IMG/VR virus record: IMGVR_UViG_3300011226_000001
Coordinates: 192,001-256,000 of that record
Strand: one strand, 5' to 3'
DNA from: a virus
Taxonomy: Duplodnaviria > Caudoviricetes
DNA length: 64,000 bases
Each line of letters begins with the position of its first letter. Within the stretch, counting starts at the first letter, position 1. A program made the translations under genes and the position numbers. The notes beneath the pieces are model-generated. The model was not told where the DNA came from. It was given only the letters and a program-made list of their open reading frames with translations, and made no database searches. Shown here piece after piece: positions 9,167-40,878 of the stretch.

Positions 9167-9205
9167 CACTGTAAATACCAGTGTTAATGACGATTGGAGA
9201 AAATC

Positions 9206-27027: not shown

Positions 27028-29724
27028 ATGGCTAAGCCACAAGAGAAAGAGTTGTCCGCACTCGAACTAATGATCGAACATGCAGACAGCATTAGTCCTT
27101 CTGTTGCCGGTATGCCTAAAGCGCGACGCAAACGTAAAGCCGCTAACGATTCACCTGCGGTAGATTACGAACGCGATTACGACCCAGAACTGTACGATGA
27201 TGAAGTTGTATTTGTCGGACCTGGGTCACGCGCTAAGAACCGTGCAGCAAAAGCGTTGCGCGAGAAGATGGCCAATCAGCGTGTGCGTTATGTCAGTGAT
27301 AACGATGCACCAACTTCTCCTCGTGCTGTATCGCAGCAACCAAACCCACGTGAAGTTGAATCAGCACTTGAAGACCTGTTCATCGCAGGTGAGAAGTCTG
27401 GTGATGATATCGTTAAAGCAATCAAAGAGGGTAATGCAGTCTCAACGAAGACGCAGAAAGCCCTCGAAGATTGGCTTGAGTGGGAAAAGCGCGAAGCATT
27501 CAAAGAGAAGAACCGCGCCAAGTCAGACCCCCATGGTAATCAGCCAGGTGCCGGTGGCCCCGGAACCGGTGGTGCAAAAGATGATGGAGGACCTGATGAA
27601 GATGATAACGGCGGTCCTGATTTCGGTGATAATGGCAACAATAATCGCCGTCGTCGTACCGGTGGTCGTAATCGCCGTGGCAGACGCTACGGACGCAGTT
27701 CAGGATCACGCAGAGGTCCGGGGCGCAACCTTCCTCGACGCAGATTCCCACGATTAAGAGGCAAGGCTGGTGCGCTGTTAACTCTCGGTACTCTCGCTGC
27801 TGCTACTGCTGGTGGTTTGTGGTTGAAGAACGAATCGCAAGAGAAGTTCGAGCAAGATAATGCTGGGAACGGCGGTGCGGGTATGCCTGACAATCAGGCC
27901 GTTCCTGCTGAGGCCCCTGCTCCAGTTGCTCAACAACCCGAGATTCAACGCGCAGAAGAAGCTGCTAAGGGTGATGCACCCAAGCCTCCGTCAGAAGCAC
28001 AAGACGCTGCTGTTGCTGGTGCTTCCTTGTTGCTTGCTGGTGCTGCGAAGAAGATTCCTGTTGTAGGTCCTGCTCTTGGTAACGGTTTGTCGCTTGCGAA
28101 CGATATGCAGCACATCGACGCAGACGAAACGATGACCGACCAAGAGAAAGCGCACGAGAAGAAAAAAGCAACTGGTGGTGCTATCGGAGGAACTGCTGGT
28201 GGCACTACAGGTGCTGTTGCTGGCGCGTGGATTGGCGGTACGTTAGGTTCAGTCGTTCCTGTTGTTGGCACTGCTGCTGGTGCTGCTCTTGGTGGCTTGC
28301 TGGGTGGCATTCTGGGTGATTACTTCGGTAACTCTATCGGTGAGTATGTTGCCGATAAGATAACTGATGAAACAGACACGATGCTCGCTGACGGTGAGAA
28401 AGACCGCAAAGAGAAGATGGACGAGTACAACGACACTACCGCAGAGAACGAGAACAAAGCGAAGTTCCCTGCACCATCTGTTTCACCTTTCAGCTTCATG
28501 GGTCTGATGGGTATGGGGGGCTCTGGTGGTGGCACGTATCAAGGTCCGATGCGAGCACAACCGTCTAAGCGTTATGACAGCAAGCAAGTAACCGATATCG
28601 CTAACAAAGCAATTGCTGAGGGTGGTCTTGGTTCTGTTAGTGAGCAGTTCGAATCAGGTGGCCGTGGTGTAGGCACTGTGTCTACTGGTCGTGGTGATTA
28701 TGGTGGTGTGTCTTACGGCAAACACCAGCTTGCTACGAACAACGGCAGCATGATGAACTTCTTGAACAGCCCTGAAGGTAAACCGTTCTTGCAACGCTTT
28801 GGTGGTCTTGCTCCGGGGACCGCTCAGTTCAACTCTGTCTACAAAGACGTTGCGAGTTCTCAAGGTGCAGAGTTCGATAAAGCGCAGTCTGACTATATCA
28901 CGCGTACTCACTATGCACCTCTTGCTGCGAAGATGCAGAACGAAGTGGGTGTTGATTTGACGAAGCGTGGTGCTGGTGTCAAGGAGCTGATGTATAGTAC
29001 CGCTGTGCAGTACGGTGCAGGTACAAGCGTCATCTCTAATGCACTGCAGGGTAAAGACGTTAACTCAATGTCCGACGAAGAATTGATTAAGACAATTCAG
29101 GACTACAAGGCAGCGACCACCGACAGATACTTCAAGTCATCTGATGCTCAGACGCGACAGTCCGTTGCGATGCGAGCGCAGAACGAGAAGGATGTGTTGC
29201 TCAAAGTTGCAGAAGCAGACAGGAAGAAGAAAGCTGTAAATAACCCAGATGCGGAGCTTGACGCCAAGATCGCTAAACGTTTCCCGGACTTACCTAAGGG
29301 TAGCGGTAGCGATTACAGCAATACTCAAGTTGACGCAAACAAAGAATCATTGCCTGACTTAACAGGTCGTGGTCCGGTTACGCCTAAGTCTACTCCTGAA
29401 GAGCATGAGCGTCGTTTGAACGAACTCGTTGCTGCTGCGGCTCCTGATGTGAAACGCATTGAGCCTGTAGTGCAGCCAGAAGCTCCTGTTGAGCGTGTGC
29501 CTCTCGTAACACCTGGAGACATTGCTCGTACAGAAGTACCTGAACCTGCTGTTGCAGCACCCCCACCAACTCAAACAGCCAATCAGCCTAAAGGCGGTGC
29601 AGTATCTCGCCCAAGCTCGAAAGGTTCAAGTGGCTCTAGCCCTAGTAACTCACACTCACTCGATTCAATTCCAATCTTCATGGATGACCCGATGCTGAAT
29701 ATGATTACTATGGGTTACATGTGA
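27028..29724 (+). CDS. Tape-measure-like protein with glycine-zipper segment and peptidoglycan hydrolase (VgrG3-C-like lysozyme) domain
   Basis: GGAIGGTAGG...GGLLGG zipper. LGSVSEQFESGGRG..VSTG.GDYGGVSYGKHQL and STAVQYG are characteristic of that muramidase family. Confidence 0.7.
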   Translation: MAKPQEKELSALELMIEHADSISPSVAGMPKARRKRKAANDSPAVDYERDYDPELYDDEVVFVGPGSRAKNRAAKALREKMANQRVRYVSDNDAPTSPRAVSQQPNPREVESALEDLFIAGEKSGDDIVKAIKEGNAVSTKTQKALEDWLEWEKREAFKEKNRAKSDPHGNQPGAGGPGTGGAKDDGGPDEDDNGGPDFGDNGNNNRRRRTGGRNRRGRRYGRSSGSRRGPGRNLPRRRFPRLRGKAGALLTLGTLAAATAGGLWLKNESQEKFEQDNAGNGGAGMPDNQAVPAEAPAPVAQQPEIQRAEEAAKGDAPKPPSEAQDAAVAGASLLLAGAAKKIPVVGPALGNGLSLANDMQHIDADETMTDQEKAHEKKKATGGAIGGTAGGTTGAVAGAWIGGTLGSVVPVVGTAAGAALGGLLGGILGDYFGNSIGEYVADKITDETDTMLADGEKDRKEKMDEYNDTTAENENKAKFPAPSVSPFSFMGLMGMGGSGGGTYQGPMRAQPSKRYDSKQVTDIANKAIAEGGLGSVSEQFESGGRGVGTVSTGRGDYGGVSYGKHQLATNNGSMMNFLNSPEGKPFLQRFGGLAPGTAQFNSVYKDVASSQGAEFDKAQSDYITRTHYAPLAAKMQNEVGVDLTKRGAGVKELMYSTAVQYGAGTSVISNALQGKDVNSMSDEELIKTIQDYKAATTDRYFKSSDAQTRQSVAMRAQNEKDVLLKVAEADRKKKAVNNPDAELDAKIAKRFPDLPKGSGSDYSNTQVDANKESLPDLTGRGPVTPKSTPEEHERRLNELVAAAAPDVKRIEPVVQPEAPVERVPLVTPGDIARTEVPEPAVAAPPPTQTANQPKGGAVSRPSSKGSSGSSPSNSHSLDSIPIFMDDPMLNMITMGYM

Positions 29725-37499: not shown

Positions 37500-39263
37500 A
37501 TGAACCTCATTAAAAAGCAGTCCTCGATCATTCGTGATCTGAGTATCATGCCGTTAACCGTCAGCCGAATTGGCGATGCGTTTGTTGGCCTTAGCTCCAG
37601 CAACGTTGCCTATGCTTGGCGTCACGGTGAAATCTTTGACTTCGCTGCTGGTAGCGATGTACGCTTCGAATCACTGAATGCGAATACCATCGAACGTATC
37701 AGCGGCCTGAACTTTGCGGGTAAGCACGAAGATGTAGGTACAACCGTTTTCATGTCCAGCACAAGCGCCGTGCATCTGCATCTTGGCGATAAGCGCGAAC
37801 CGTATTCTGTAGCGTCTTCATTCGACCTGATGCCGGCCGTGCGTGACTTCGCTGCATCGCTGTCTAATACCGGTAAGGCAATGGAGATTGCTTCTGAGTC
37901 TGCCGGTGCTCGCACTTACGCTACGTACACAGGTAAGAAAGTCGTTGTCGATGACGCTAACGACGAGTATGACCTTGAGCTGGAGAAGGGCGACAAGTAC
38001 AGCATGGTTTATCTGAACCGTGACCGCTATGAGTTGCGCCTGAAAGATGAACCGAAGATTGTGTTTATCGTTCGTGGTCATCTGCGTGTCGCTAACATCA
38101 TTGGTCAGACTGAGTTCACTAAACAGTTTGGCGCAATCGCTAACGACAAAGCAAACACGTTCCAGCCGGTCGGTGTTGTTGGTCGCAACATGGCTACGCC
38201 TTTGCAGATCAAGAAAGACACAGTTATCTACACGTACCGCAAGAAACACTATCTGCCGCAGAACCTTGTTGTTCCGCTTGAGAAGATTCTTGATGGTGCG
38301 TCACTGTCTAAGCTGATCGACAGCCTCAAGCCGGTTAAAGAAAACAAGCATATCGTCAAAGGTAAGCTGGTGGGTGTTAAGCTGCCGCCGCTAGCTGGCG
38401 GTAAGAAGATTGCTTCTGACCAACCTATTAAGAAAAACGTGCAGGCTGTTTACGGTGCGTTCTTCCCTGTGTCTGCCTCTCAGCCTAACCGTAGTCGTGT
38501 TGTCTTCGGTAAGACCGTGAAAGAAGCGCAGACGAAAGCGGTTGAAGCTGTTAATCGCATGGCGGTGCCGACAGACTACTACCTGTTCAGTACAACCACC
38601 AGCGATGAATTGTATGACCTCGCTAAGGGTGGCTCTGTGTTGATTCGCGCTACCGGTGTGTTGCAGCATACGTATGCCAATGCGAAGCACGTATCGCTCG
38701 GCTACATGGACAACCAGACCGAACTGCGTGATCCTGTGAAAGTAGGCGTGCCTGAGTTGCGTGTTGCTGCTATCAATCAGAACACGAAAGAGGTTGTCAA
38801 AGAAGTGCTGCGTCTTCTGACAGAAGGCTACTTCAACACAGGTCTGCATCTGTCTGTGCGTCAACCGGAAGAAGCAATCAGCTTCGAAGGTACATTTGAC
38901 CCACGTACTCGCGATCAGCTTACTGGTATCGGCCGCCGCATCGCTGCGTATCTCAAGCAGAACGGTGTGAAGCTGGAGAACGGTATGATTCGCGCTGCGT
39001 TCGGACAGAAACGTGCAGAACTGCGATTCAAGCTGCCTACGCTTTCAGGCGCTGCTTTGCAATCTGTAAATAAGATTCAGACAGACGAACCAACTCTGAA
39101 TGCTCCGATTTATGCGACCATCAAGCCTAAACAGCCGACTGTCGAAATCACTGCATTCAACCGCCACACTGGTTACGTGACTGTACGCGCTCAACGCGGT
39201 CCTGAACTGTACTCTGAGCCGTATGAAACTTTATATTCGAATATTGAACGTAAAGCGTTCTAA
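37500..39263 (+). CDS. Hypothetical protein with S-x-S-rich N-terminal region and the shared ~65-aa domain (candidate internal head protein)
   Basis: IASESAG directly precedes YATYTG...LEKGDKYSM. Confidence 0.6.
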   Translation: MNLIKKQSSIIRDLSIMPLTVSRIGDAFVGLSSSNVAYAWRHGEIFDFAAGSDVRFESLNANTIERISGLNFAGKHEDVGTTVFMSSTSAVHLHLGDKREPYSVASSFDLMPAVRDFAASLSNTGKAMEIASESAGARTYATYTGKKVVVDDANDEYDLELEKGDKYSMVYLNRDRYELRLKDEPKIVFIVRGHLRVANIIGQTEFTKQFGAIANDKANTFQPVGVVGRNMATPLQIKKDTVIYTYRKKHYLPQNLVVPLEKILDGASLSKLIDSLKPVKENKHIVKGKLVGVKLPPLAGGKKIASDQPIKKNVQAVYGAFFPVSASQPNRSRVVFGKTVKEAQTKAVEAVNRMAVPTDYYLFSTTTSDELYDLAKGGSVLIRATGVLQHTYANAKHVSLGYMDNQTELRDPVKVGVPELRVAAINQNTKEVVKEVLRLLTEGYFNTGLHLSVRQPEEAISFEGTFDPRTRDQLTGIGRRIAAYLKQNGVKLENGMIRAAFGQKRAELRFKLPTLSGAALQSVNKIQTDEPTLNAPIYATIKPKQPTVEITAFNRHTGYVTVRAQRGPELYSEPYETLYSNIERKAF

Positions 39264-39843
39264 AATCTGTAAATAAAAATTGCAGATAGTAATATCAAGT
39301 TGTAGCAAGAGACTTACTTCGCGGGCAGTCTCTTGCTGGTCCATAAACTCACGCGCTGTATTTCTTGGCGGCATGTGAGCCTCCAGCCGGTTTGAGCTTA
39401 TGCTCTGTAATCGTGAGGACAACCCCGGCACCCACGTGATGGACTGTTGCTCTGTCGCTGACGCCCATAAGGCCCAGCTCTTTTCATCTTTGTGACATGG
39501 CACGGCAGCAGCCTCTAGGCACGTAGACTGGTGGAACGTATTCTCAACGTTGTGACCACTCTTTTAGGGATAGCAGTTCGCAGTTACGCTGCCTGATGCA
39601 CATTGGCTGGCAATAACAGTGTGCATTGGGGAGATATCTACTCTCCATGACAATTCCACCAGCTCTTTCCTACCGATGTACAACACGGTGAGGGTATGTA
39701 GTGTGTCATCCAGCGGACGACTCAGCACACTGCGTACAGGATTGAACTGTAAGAGTCTTAATGTGATAAACATCCGCGACCCTCATGGGTGCTGTGCCTT
39801 TTCACGGTATCTAGGGAGTAAAAGAACGTAGACGAGATACTCA

Positions 39844-40250
39844 AGTGATGTTGGGCGACGAGCGACTCTGCGTTTGGTCAAAGCTGTACACAGCCTGTTG
39901 AGCATTGCCCTTAACAATGTTCAATGGAGTGTGTCCGCGCCATGCTGCCGTTGACGTGCTGCCATAGCTTGCCCACTTTTCCGGGTAGTGAAATATCGTA
40001 TAGGACTTGTTAGCGGTCAATCGCGTTCCTACCACGATCTAATGCACAACAAGAGCGATTGTTAAAGAGTGTATCAACCACCGCAGATCACCGATGGGTC
40101 ACCTCCTTCGCTTGAGCGATGCTGTTAGGGCATACGGAACTTTTCCACTTTTTCCGCCGTGTGTCCTTGATGTGTTGTTCTTGTGTGCGGTTTCCGCAGC
40201 CCAGGCGGTAAAGAGAGAAAGAGAGTTGAAACCCTAGTGATGTTGGGCGA
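39844..40250 (+). repeat. Exact 15-nt direct repeat AGTGATGTTGGGCGA (39844-39858 and 40236-40250)
   Basis: Read directly; both copies cap a stem. Confidence 0.9.
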
Positions 40251-40320
40251 AGGGCAACTCGAAGTAACTTGATCGACATTTGCAAATGTTTTACTTACAG
40301 TAGAGACACAAGGAGCAAAC

Positions 40321-40479
40321 ATGATTTTGTTCTACGTGTCGCTGATAGCAATCGTGATGCTTGGTCACTTGCTATCATGGTCCGAGAGTCACTTACAGTT
40401 GCCGTTTGATGCGGCTTCACTCTCGGTCAGTCACTCCGGCTTAGTAGCTTCGGCTACCGGGCACTCGCTTCGGGTGTGA
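40321..40479 (+). CDS. Possible 52-aa peptide with a hydrophobic N-terminus, inside the structured region
   Basis: AAGGAG at 40310-40315, ATG 40321, MILFYVSLIAIVMLGHLLSW..., TGA 40477-40479. Below the ORF-track cut-off. Confidence 0.35.
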   Translation: MILFYVSLIAIVMLGHLLSWSESHLQLPFDAASLSVSHSGLVASATGHSLRV

Positions 40480-40507
40480 GGGAGTACGCGACACAAATCC
40501 AAGCATA

Positions 40508-40543
40508 GAAAGCGGGTGGCCTTCGGGTCGCCCGTTTTCGTTT
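40508..40543 (+). terminator. Rho-independent terminator closing the structured region
   Basis: GAAAGCGGGTGGCC-TTCG-GGTCGCCCGTTTTC then GTTT. Confidence 0.85.
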
Positions 40544-40557
40544 CTACTGCACACAAA

Positions 40558-40565
40558 GCTAATTT
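40558..40565 (+). promoter_or_regulatory. Candidate late promoter GCTAATTT for the PAAR/baseplate operon
   Basis: Recurrent motif right after a terminator. Confidence 0.55.
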
Positions 40566-40587
40566 GTGCCTAACAGAGGAGAATATC

Positions 40588-40878
40588 ATGGGACAGAAAG
40601 CTATTCGACTAGGCACTGACCTGTCTACTGGTCATAACGGTTACTTCCCTGTTGTTCCGGCACAAGCATCGTCTAACGTGTTCGTAAATGGCAAAGGTAG
40701 TGTTCGTAATGGCGATAAGTACAAGCCACACTGGAAACCGAAGAAGCCACCTCATACAGGTACCGCTATCTCAAACTCCAGTGTGCGTGTCAATGGCAAG
40801 CCTGCCCAGCGAGCCGGTGACCCAAACAGTTGTGGTGACACTGCTTCTAACGGCAGCTCTAACGTGAGATTTGGCTAA
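40588..40878 (+). CDS. PAAR-domain spike tip protein
   Basis: GAGGAG RBS. AIRLGTD..TGH, SNVFVNGK, SSVRVNGKPAQRAGD..SCG...GSSNV. Confidence 0.9.
   Translation: MGQKAIRLGTDLSTGHNGYFPVVPAQASSNVFVNGKGSVRNGDKYKPHWKPKKPPHTGTAISNSSVRVNGKPAQRAGDPNSCGDTASNGSSNVRFG

Follow-up and report, generated by a model that had tools for sequence, protein, structure and literature searches.

The window analysed here is a stretch of 64,000 nucleotides (nt) from a phage genome, positions 192001-256000 of the 268,224-bp record IMGVR_UViG_3300011226_000001, which carries direct terminal repeats. The long open reading frames (ORFs) of the window all lie on the + strand and abut one another; a long + strand ORF is missing from only one long interval, 39264-40587, as the first-pass annotation of this DNA had pointed out. 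We conclude that the interval almost certainly harbors a real gene for a structured RNA. The explanation that we favor as a whole is a + strand RNA of a new family that has its own promoter and terminator and acts in trans as a scaffold or decoy; we assign it a probability of about 0.5. The earlier proposal was supported in its core, namely that a structured phage RNA of very large size and of a new class, with a promoter box and a terminator, is encoded on the + strand.

A blastn search retrieved the interval at full length from 32 of 44 matching phage records with 70-89% identity (Alexandravirus phages of Erwinia and Dickeya) and as a partial match from the pEa_SNUABM_45 group. At the same place, 44 phage records and additional metagenomic contigs have a gap of 1.27-1.36 kb. 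It is held by all Alexandravirus phages, the pEa_SNUABM_45 group, Sasquatchvirus Y3 (full-length nhmmer match, E 8e-136) and three metagenomic phages. The small ORFs annotated within the gaps of these relatives disagree from genome to genome. The comparative set consisted of 15 sequences from about six lineages that were 52-93% identical. Identity of the RNA body to the window was 0.91 for SNUABM_1, 0.84 for SNUABM_30, 0.70 for Alexandra and 0.55 for Y3, compared to 0.71, 0.57, 0.54 and 0.41 for the same phages at the 4-fold degenerate sites of the adjacent gene, which served as a neutral proxy. The RNA body is more conserved than this proxy and is therefore under purifying selection. In a motif scan of metagenomes, four of six matches lay inside coding regions and were rejected as chance.

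The first-pass annotation had suggested looking for covariation among syntenic relatives, and this was found. The RNAalifold consensus of 12 sequences aligned by MAFFT comprised 321 pairs. Standard pairs made up 96.3% of the cells in these pairs, compared to 87.7 ± 0.3% in shuffles. Changes on both sides (compensatory changes) were seen in 119 pairs, compared to 66.5 ± 4.3 after shuffling, and this number was reached in 0 of 500 shuffles. When the 3' partners were slid by 1-3 columns as a control, pairing was 34-44% and only 16-40 pairs covaried. With the set of 15 sequences, 146 of 278 pairs covaried. The covarying helices were spread along the whole length of the RNA. The consensus pairs contained 567 G-U cells but only 41 A-C cells, and RNAalifold calculated -296 kcal/mol for the + strand versus -192 kcal/mol for the reverse complement, in line with the earlier argument that the G-U wobbles point to a + strand RNA. 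A test for codon periodicity showed none in the body (39297-40320). Because of the covariation, the strand asymmetry, the purifying selection and the lack of codon periodicity, we concluded that the interval encodes a structured RNA on the + strand. By the generic criteria for a conserved structured non-coding RNA, covariation was present, and a coding signal was absent from the body 39297-40320 but not from 40321-40479, which is a conserved small ORF. The description of the interval as non-coding thus held for the body and not for this 3' part.

A gene-free stretch at a module boundary with a transcript that is predicted could also be a DNA-level element, such as an origin or a packaging site, or a decayed gene, with no RNA gene at all. 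The tolerance of G-U but not of A-C, the far better consensus on the + strand, the abundance of compensatory changes and the absence of a conserved ORF or codon periodicity from the body all contradict this, and we give it almost no credence.

The local helices of the first-pass annotation were recovered. Helices 39304-14/39327-37, 39596-605/39617-26, 39695-705/39726-36 and 39898-907/39915-24 were in the consensus or folded in every lineage, and the same was true for 40127-37/40157-67, 40343-51/40369-77, 40382-89/40419-26 and the UUCG hairpin (40444-57). Most of these local helices covary. The six long-range helices that had been thought to close domains mostly failed, being only 57-78% canonical in the 15 relatives versus about 95% for consensus helices. 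Helix 40336-42/40488-94 and a part of another, 39502-07/39946-51, are plausible, yet invariant.

Three pseudoknots of one type were identified, each formed by an AGCNGN loop and a downstream NCNGC strand and all 100% canonical in the 15 sequences. The central pair of PK0 (39386-90/39425-29) is CG in 11 sequences, UA in three and AU in one. In PK1 the loop GCGGA (39713-17) pairs with UCCGC (39773-77), with the compensatory variants GCGGG/CCCGC and GCAGG/CCUGC. In PK2 the loop GCGGU (40013-17) pairs with ACCGC (40080-84); one position is GC in 10, AU in four and UA in one sequence, and another is UA in seven and GC in eight. Across the three pseudoknots the compensatory variants GCGGU/ACCGC, GCAGG/CCUGC, GCUGG/CCAGC and GCGGG/CCCGC occur. 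In the 12-sequence alignment the pseudoknots and their loop stems contained 7 covarying pairs versus 3.3 ± 0.9, and slid controls gave 0-1.

Two of the pseudoknots are linked to paralogous modules of about 130 nt, M1 and M2. In each module the NCCGC strand forms its pseudoknot (PK1 or PK2) with an AGCGGN loop, which belongs to a hairpin lying 60-70 nt further 5'. Module M1 (39756-39884) consists of (A/U)GUGAUAAACAUCCGC, a closing helix (39778-81/39876-79), a hairpin, AGGGAGUAAAAGA and a loop hairpin. The 15-nt loop AGUGAUGUUGGGCGA of the latter (39844-58) is closed by the stem 39840-42/39860-62, which covaries between CUC/GAG and CCC/GGG. A covariance model built from M1, termed R1 (calibrated briefly, so that its E-values are rough), matched module M2 (40062-40279) with 30.6 bits and E 2e-6, and an equivalent match was obtained in every lineage. 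M2 has a second copy of AGUGAUGUUGGGCGA at 40236-50, on the stem 40232-34/40252-54 (CCC/GGG, CUC/GAG or CCA/UGG). Both modules share the leading AGUG-AU-AAC-NCCGCAG element, the closing helix, the motif AGG(G/C)(A/G)GUAAA(A)G and the 15-nt loop hairpin. The hairpin inserted between these elements is 30 nt long in M1 and is a 99-nt three-way junction in M2, with the covarying helices 40090-98/40200-09, 40109-22/40172-85 and 40127-36/40158-67. In this junction a strand CCUCCUUCGC is exposed (40102-40111; UCACCUCCUU in this phage), which was unpaired in the consensus and invariant in five of the six lineages, Y3 lacking it. We take its CCUCCUU to resemble the anti-Shine-Dalgarno sequence, that is, the 3' end of 16S rRNA. 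R1 found no module at the unit U0, which contains PK0, and the type of pseudoknot is therefore what supports U0 as a third unit. Read by eye, the strands 3' of all three pseudoknots look alike, which suggests that there may be three paralogous units. As a further module copy in the genome, a weak match near 16.6 kb was rejected, since it lies inside a 473-amino-acid (aa) ORF on the opposite strand. In metagenome 3300013825 two contigs end inside the RNA, one at its 3' end (L038) and one at its 5' end (L013); they overlap by about 105 nt over M2, and the assembly stopped within the internally repeated RNA.

The remaining fold, all on the + strand, begins with the 5' hairpins P1 (39304-14/39327-37) and P2 (39348-58/39369-79), which together span 39304-39379. 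Both fold in 15 of 15 relatives from almost wholly different sequences, although MAFFT misaligned them, and nine of the ten pairs of P2 show compensatory changes. They are followed by U0 (39380-39429), which has a CCUC/GAGG helix (39380-83/39415-18), an inner hairpin and PK0. Between 39434 and 39562 there are a long hairpin (39434-55/39500-24, 9 covarying pairs) and a second one (39525-38/39548-62, 5 covarying pairs). The consensus structure then forms a central multibranch domain (39568-39889) with an invariant closing helix, 39568-74/39883-89. Inside it are the hairpins 39593-604/39618-29 and 39695-704/39727-36; in the latter, nine of ten pairs covary. The region 39890-39955 contains the hairpins 39890-907/39915-32 (6 covarying pairs) and 39933-40/39947-55, which varied by G-U changes only. 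In the region 39995-40084 the hairpin 39995-40005/40027-38 (7 covarying pairs) provides the loop for PK2.

Signals for transcription were found at both ends of the RNA. The block 39264-39296 on the + strand is identical in 12 relatives and contains the promoter box TCTGTAAATA at 39266-39275; the upstream box reported previously was located here as well (CTGTAAATA, 39267-75). A reading of 39265-72/39280-87 as a hairpin was rejected, because this pairing is broken in a metagenomic relative, and the block is thus a sequence motif and not a structure. The 268-kb genome has 19 exact copies of TCTGTAAATA, with about 0.5 expected; all of them run in the direction of the local genes, and an ORF start follows most of them after 7-60 nt. 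Because of this recurrence, orientation and placement, we regard TCTGTAAATA as a general promoter element of the phage. The copies are on the - strand up to about 129 kb and on the + strand from about 124 kb, matching the gene blocks. Within the window they are at 9168-9177, 29233-29242, 39063-39072 and 39266-39275, and one copy lies inside the 587-aa gene that precedes the RNA, 200 nt 5' of the RNA's own box. We presume a likeness of TCTGTAAATA to the T4 late promoter TATAAATA, and on this ground transcription would start near 39282. The intrinsic terminator at 40508-40543 (+ strand), a 14-bp stem followed by a T run, was confirmed; it is strong and is conserved, with G-C/G-U changes. A single transcript from promoter to terminator is likely. 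The predicted primary transcript (39282-40543, + strand), both ends of which are deduced from these signals, is about 1.26 kb long and comprises a non-coding body of about 1.04 kb, which extends to 40320, and a structured 3' part with the small ORF and the terminator. Phages of this kind have been reported to encode a sigma-70-like factor (PMC7412058). Just 5' of the small ORF there is a perfect 14-nt palindrome, ACATTTGCAAATGT (40277-40290). A weak sigma-70-like match (40273-40301) overlaps with it, and it looks like a degenerate TCTGTAAATA box. The clade of the window has kept it, as has, to judge by the alignment, one metagenomic phage, whereas the Alexandra clade has not.

We also compared the locus in genera that are less closely related. 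In Yoloswagvirus, Rivsvirus (SNUABM_5) and Salmondvirus (JA33) a gap of 620-740 nt lies directly 3' of the 587-aa gene. In Yoloswag, SNUABM_5 and JA33 it is opened by a TCTGTAAATA box, and after it come small ORFs and then a homologue of the small hydrophobic ORF with a terminator. The best genome-wide match of R1 was the syntenic gap in SNUABM_5 (E 2.6e-4) and in Yoloswag (E 0.1), with one copy each, and in these two the pseudoknot is kept with covariation (AGCGGA..UCCGCAG and AGCGGG..CCCGCAG). No R1 match was obtained for JA33. Simple matching did not detect the Alexandravirus sequence motifs in the gaps of Yoloswag, SNUABM_5 or JA33, and the homology of the first two was seen only by the profile and the covariance model. 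From the R1 matches at the syntenic gap and the kept pseudoknot we infer that the RNA of Yoloswag and SNUABM_5 is shorter and has one module or more. Duplication appears to have expanded it to the kilobase form. Yoloswag (L046:5985-7018) and SNUABM_5 (L047:5901-7357) have 4-7 extra small ORFs between the 587-aa gene and the PAAR gene, and this interval is a variable accessory island across the genera.

The last approximately 220 nt of the RNA also carry a conserved ORF of 47-53 aa. In the window it encodes 52 aa (40321-40479, + strand), starts MILFYVSLIAIVMLG and is preceded by a predicted ribosome-binding site, AAGGAG, at 40310-15. It has a hydrophobic N-terminal helix and is open in 15 of 15 relatives, and the indels that the alignments show in it, of 15 nt and 3 nt, preserve the frame. 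Codon position 2 was the most conserved one in codons 2-20, and the first 20 codons, with variabilities of 0.19, 0.09 and 0.20 for the three codon positions in turn, have the coding signature of a transmembrane helix. The second half showed no periodicity and contains three covarying hairpins on the + strand, 40382-88/40420-26, 40439-48/40453-62 and 40464-68/40476-80, with 5, 4 and 3 covarying pairs, respectively. The stop codon lies within the last of these, and TGA/TAA switches together with its pairing partner. No family was found for the small peptide in Pfam, PHROGs or the protein atlas. Since homologues of the ORF exist in Yoloswag (gp109) and SNUABM_5 (SNUABM5_115), the small-ORF gene predates the big RNA and can be separated from it.

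The position of the ORF bears on a cis-acting role. The RNA could be the giant leader of a dual-function mRNA that controls translation of the small peptide, or read-through of the terminator into the baseplate genes, possibly by means of a sequestered ribosome-binding site or of the CCUCCUU strand. One promoter box and one terminator enclose RNA and ORF, the ribosome-binding site and the start codon lie in the predicted helix 40305-16/40329-40, the ORF is kept in every relative, and CCUCCUU is complementary to AAGGAG. In Yoloswag and SNUABM_5, however, about 1 kb with other small genes separates the RNA from the ORF, and the ORF of Yoloswag is equipped with a TCTGTAAATA box of its own. The anti-Shine-Dalgarno strand and the AGGAG site do not go together: only the strand is present in SNUABM_3 and SNUABM_45, and only the site in Y3. 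The helix over the ribosome-binding site is almost without covariation, and we know of no precedent for a 1-kb leader of a 52-aa peptide. We consider a cis-acting leader to be unlikely. Pairing of the exposed strand with the ribosome-binding site of the ORF or with loop 2 was rejected, as neither co-occurrence nor covariation was seen in a comparison made partly by eye.

Our proposal is that the RNA would be transcribed from the recurrent TCTGTAAATA promoter of the phage, with a start near 39282 and an end at the terminator (40543), and would act in trans as a compact scaffold or decoy built of repeats. The two identical loops AGUGAUGUUGGGCGA, the repeated pseudoknot units and the exposed CCUCCUU strand may serve as surfaces on which, in the course of infection, multiple copies of a partner are bound; this partner would be a protein or the translation machinery and would come from the phage or the host. 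We favor such a trans-acting scaffold or decoy because repeated units, identical exposed loops and an exposed pyrimidine strand amount to several equivalent binding surfaces, although this particular mode of action is put forward tentatively.

The same exposed strand might alternatively mask the Shine-Dalgarno sites of target mRNAs, so that the RNA would be a trans-acting regulator of translation of the RNAIII type. The invariance of CCUCCUUCGC and its unpaired state in five of six lineages are consistent with this, as is the link of the RNA to a gene for a small hydrophobic peptide. The extended complement GCGAAGGAGG occurred in no phage mRNA, its only exact copy in the genome being the complementary strand of the RNA itself (host targets were not searched), and Y3 does without the strand. 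One short seed would also leave 1 kb of conserved tertiary structure unexplained, and we judge this mode of regulation to be very unlikely.

The repeated modules could also mediate self-assembly. RNA-only homo-oligomers of ROOL and GOLLD have been reported by cryo-electron microscopy (bioRxiv 10.1101/2024.12.08.627333), and by analogy the present RNA might form a cage or ring: it is large, ornate and phage-borne, and its repeated modules have invariant exposed loops that are able to form kissing contacts. It has, however, no homology to ROOL or GOLLD and no tRNA genes nearby, and no conserved self-complementary loop was noticed, albeit without a dedicated search for one. This alternative appears quite unlikely to us. 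Several conserved pseudoknots and invariant junction nucleotides are also features of large ribozymes, and the RNA might be a ribozyme or another catalytic or ligand-sensing RNA. No ribozyme, intron or RNase P model was matched even at E up to 10, an obvious substrate or a logic of flanking exons was not apparent, and both neighboring genes are complete. A catalytic or ligand-sensing function is therefore highly improbable.

A number of points weigh against the scaffold or decoy RNA that we favor. Single-sequence folding was better than that of dinucleotide shuffles, the comparison suggested by the first-pass annotation, yet only modestly (z -2.1, -2.0 and -0.5 for three domains), and the folding energy of 300-nt tiles was indistinct from that of the coding flanks. 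The alignments were based on sequence and not structure-aware, and the MAFFT-based consensus is certainly wrong in places, as it missed P1 and all three pseudoknots. Only about six lineages stand behind the 15 sequences, and the cell counts are non-independent events. Where the RNA starts and ends, when it is made and whether it is processed are deduced from the DNA sequence. In Y3 the CCUCCUU strand is absent and the loops are altered, and strand and loops are thus not strictly essential. An L7Ae-like or CsrA-like protein is not encoded by the phage. Modest folding energy is, however, common among real RNAs, and the covariation is not outweighed.

Two more specific partners were considered and rejected. 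For a sponge of CsrA/RsmA, the RNA has 13 GGA compared to 20 ± 4 expected from shuffles, most of them in paired positions of the consensus, and the phage lacks CsrA. An L7Ae-type partner of the K-loop-like motif in the 15-nt loop is likewise absent from the phage.

The gap is bounded on the 5' side by the 587-aa gene (37500-39263) and on the 3' side by the PAAR spike gene (40588-40878), and the genes on both sides are complete. The 5' neighbors are an MmcB-like gene, a gene for dTMP kinase, a 144-aa protein of no assigned role and the 587-aa KMPT-N protein; PAAR and the gp25-like and gp6-like baseplate genes follow on the 3' side. With genes of the nucleotide-metabolism side upstream and baseplate genes downstream, the gap is at the upstream edge of the baseplate module, and not embedded in the morphogenesis region as had been stated. 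A KMPT-N domain (PF20294, E 2e-18) was recognized in the 587-aa protein, which is kept down to 42% identity in Salmondvirus; one Yersinia-phage record also matches. The stretch from the terminator to the start codon of the PAAR gene (40556-40587, AAGCTAATTTGTGCCTAACAGAGGAGA) is near-invariant across the lineages and single-copy in the genome, and it may be a promoter or leader of the baseplate genes. An extra ORF of 40-42 aa lies between terminator and PAAR gene in AD1, 2910A, SNUABM_3, a metagenomic contig, Yoloswag and SNUABM_5 (L006:4331-4456, L007:4326-4454, L008:4323-4445 and L041; also L046 and L047). It uses the same conserved ribosome-binding site and is not present in the phage of the window; that of SNUABM_5 starts MTRLTELAKQNYL.

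We searched for known RNA families. The whole window gave no match at the gathering thresholds of Rfam 15, and at E up to 10 the region 39000-40800 gave three chance matches (two microRNA models and a flavivirus untranslated region). The families at issue were GOLLD, ROOL, OLE, HEARO, raiA, RNase P, group I/II introns, ribozymes and 6S. ARAGORN detected no transfer RNA (tRNA) and no transfer-messenger RNA (tmRNA) in the window. These results agree with the earlier statement that hallmarks of tRNA, tmRNA, RNase P and group I/II introns are lacking, and the RNA family is not one of those in Rfam. Full-text searches of the literature, including the genome papers of AD1, the JA phages and PaBG, did not turn up a description of the RNA, although it may be among the thousands of unnamed computational IMG/VR candidates of a 2023 survey of viral structured RNAs (PMC10690425).

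It is possible, though doubtful, that the RNA is the founding member of an undescribed class, namely kilobase, repeat-built, pseudoknotted RNAs of 'hairy' jumbo phages with a molecular activity of their own. Such an RNA could, for example, be an RNA machine or decoy that engages host translation or a defense system through the duplicated loops and the strand resembling the 16S 3' end. Very few large RNAs with a complex fold are known beyond ribosomes, introns and RNase P, and this one would be among the largest non-ribosomal structured RNAs of the bacterial and phage world. Each earlier large RNA of this kind (OLE, GOLLD, ROOL) started structural and functional research. The carriers are virulent phages that can be cultured, their host is genetically tractable, and the phages are under development against fire blight. 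The modular build offers precise targets for mutation, namely three pseudoknots, two identical loops and one exposed strand, and the shorter relatives in other genera are natural minimal constructs. Annotations of jumbo phages put spurious small ORFs across the gap and overlook a major gene.

Several known systems resemble the RNA in part. Like tmRNA, it combines a pseudoknot-rich structured RNA with a short coding stretch; unlike tmRNA, it has no tRNA-like domain according to ARAGORN, and its ORF has its own ribosome-binding site and AUG. With the prohead RNA (pRNA) of phi29, which works as a part of a machine, it shares being a phage-encoded structural RNA near morphogenesis genes. The pRNA is only about 170 nt long and is unrelated in sequence, and the likeness does not imply that the RNA described here is associated with virions. 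The 15-nt loop recalls a K-turn or K-loop (box C/D-like), as it has GUGAUG ... CGA on a short covarying stem; the C box is RUGAUGA and the D box CUGA. The loop has GA dinucleotides and the stem covaries, but by eye their arrangement departs from the canonical one, in which a stem, a 3-nt bulge and tandem sheared G-A pairs follow each other, and the phage has no PF01248 protein; we note it as a resemblance and no more.

RNAIII of Staphylococcus and other dual-function RNAs (SgrS/SgrT) are likewise long structured RNAs that encode a small hydrophobic peptide, and they too expose a C-rich strand complementary to Shine-Dalgarno sites. In contrast to RNAIII, to which there is no homology, the present RNA is about twice as long and has the peptide at its 3' end, and in related genera peptide gene and RNA are separate. 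The RNA is loosely a 'large ornate phage RNA', but it belongs to none of the known families of this kind. It matched GOLLD and ROOL neither in sequence nor in structure. The body of these RNAs is roughly 0.6-0.8 kb long, compared to about 1.04 kb here, and many ROOL and GOLLD loci have tRNA genes nearby. The present RNA, in contrast, is found in virulent jumbo phages of Enterobacterales without nearby tRNA genes (ARAGORN), shows a build of repeated modules and has a small ORF fused to it. What it has in common with GOLLD and ROOL is the very large size, the intricate fold, the carriage by phages and the many covarying helices and pseudoknots.

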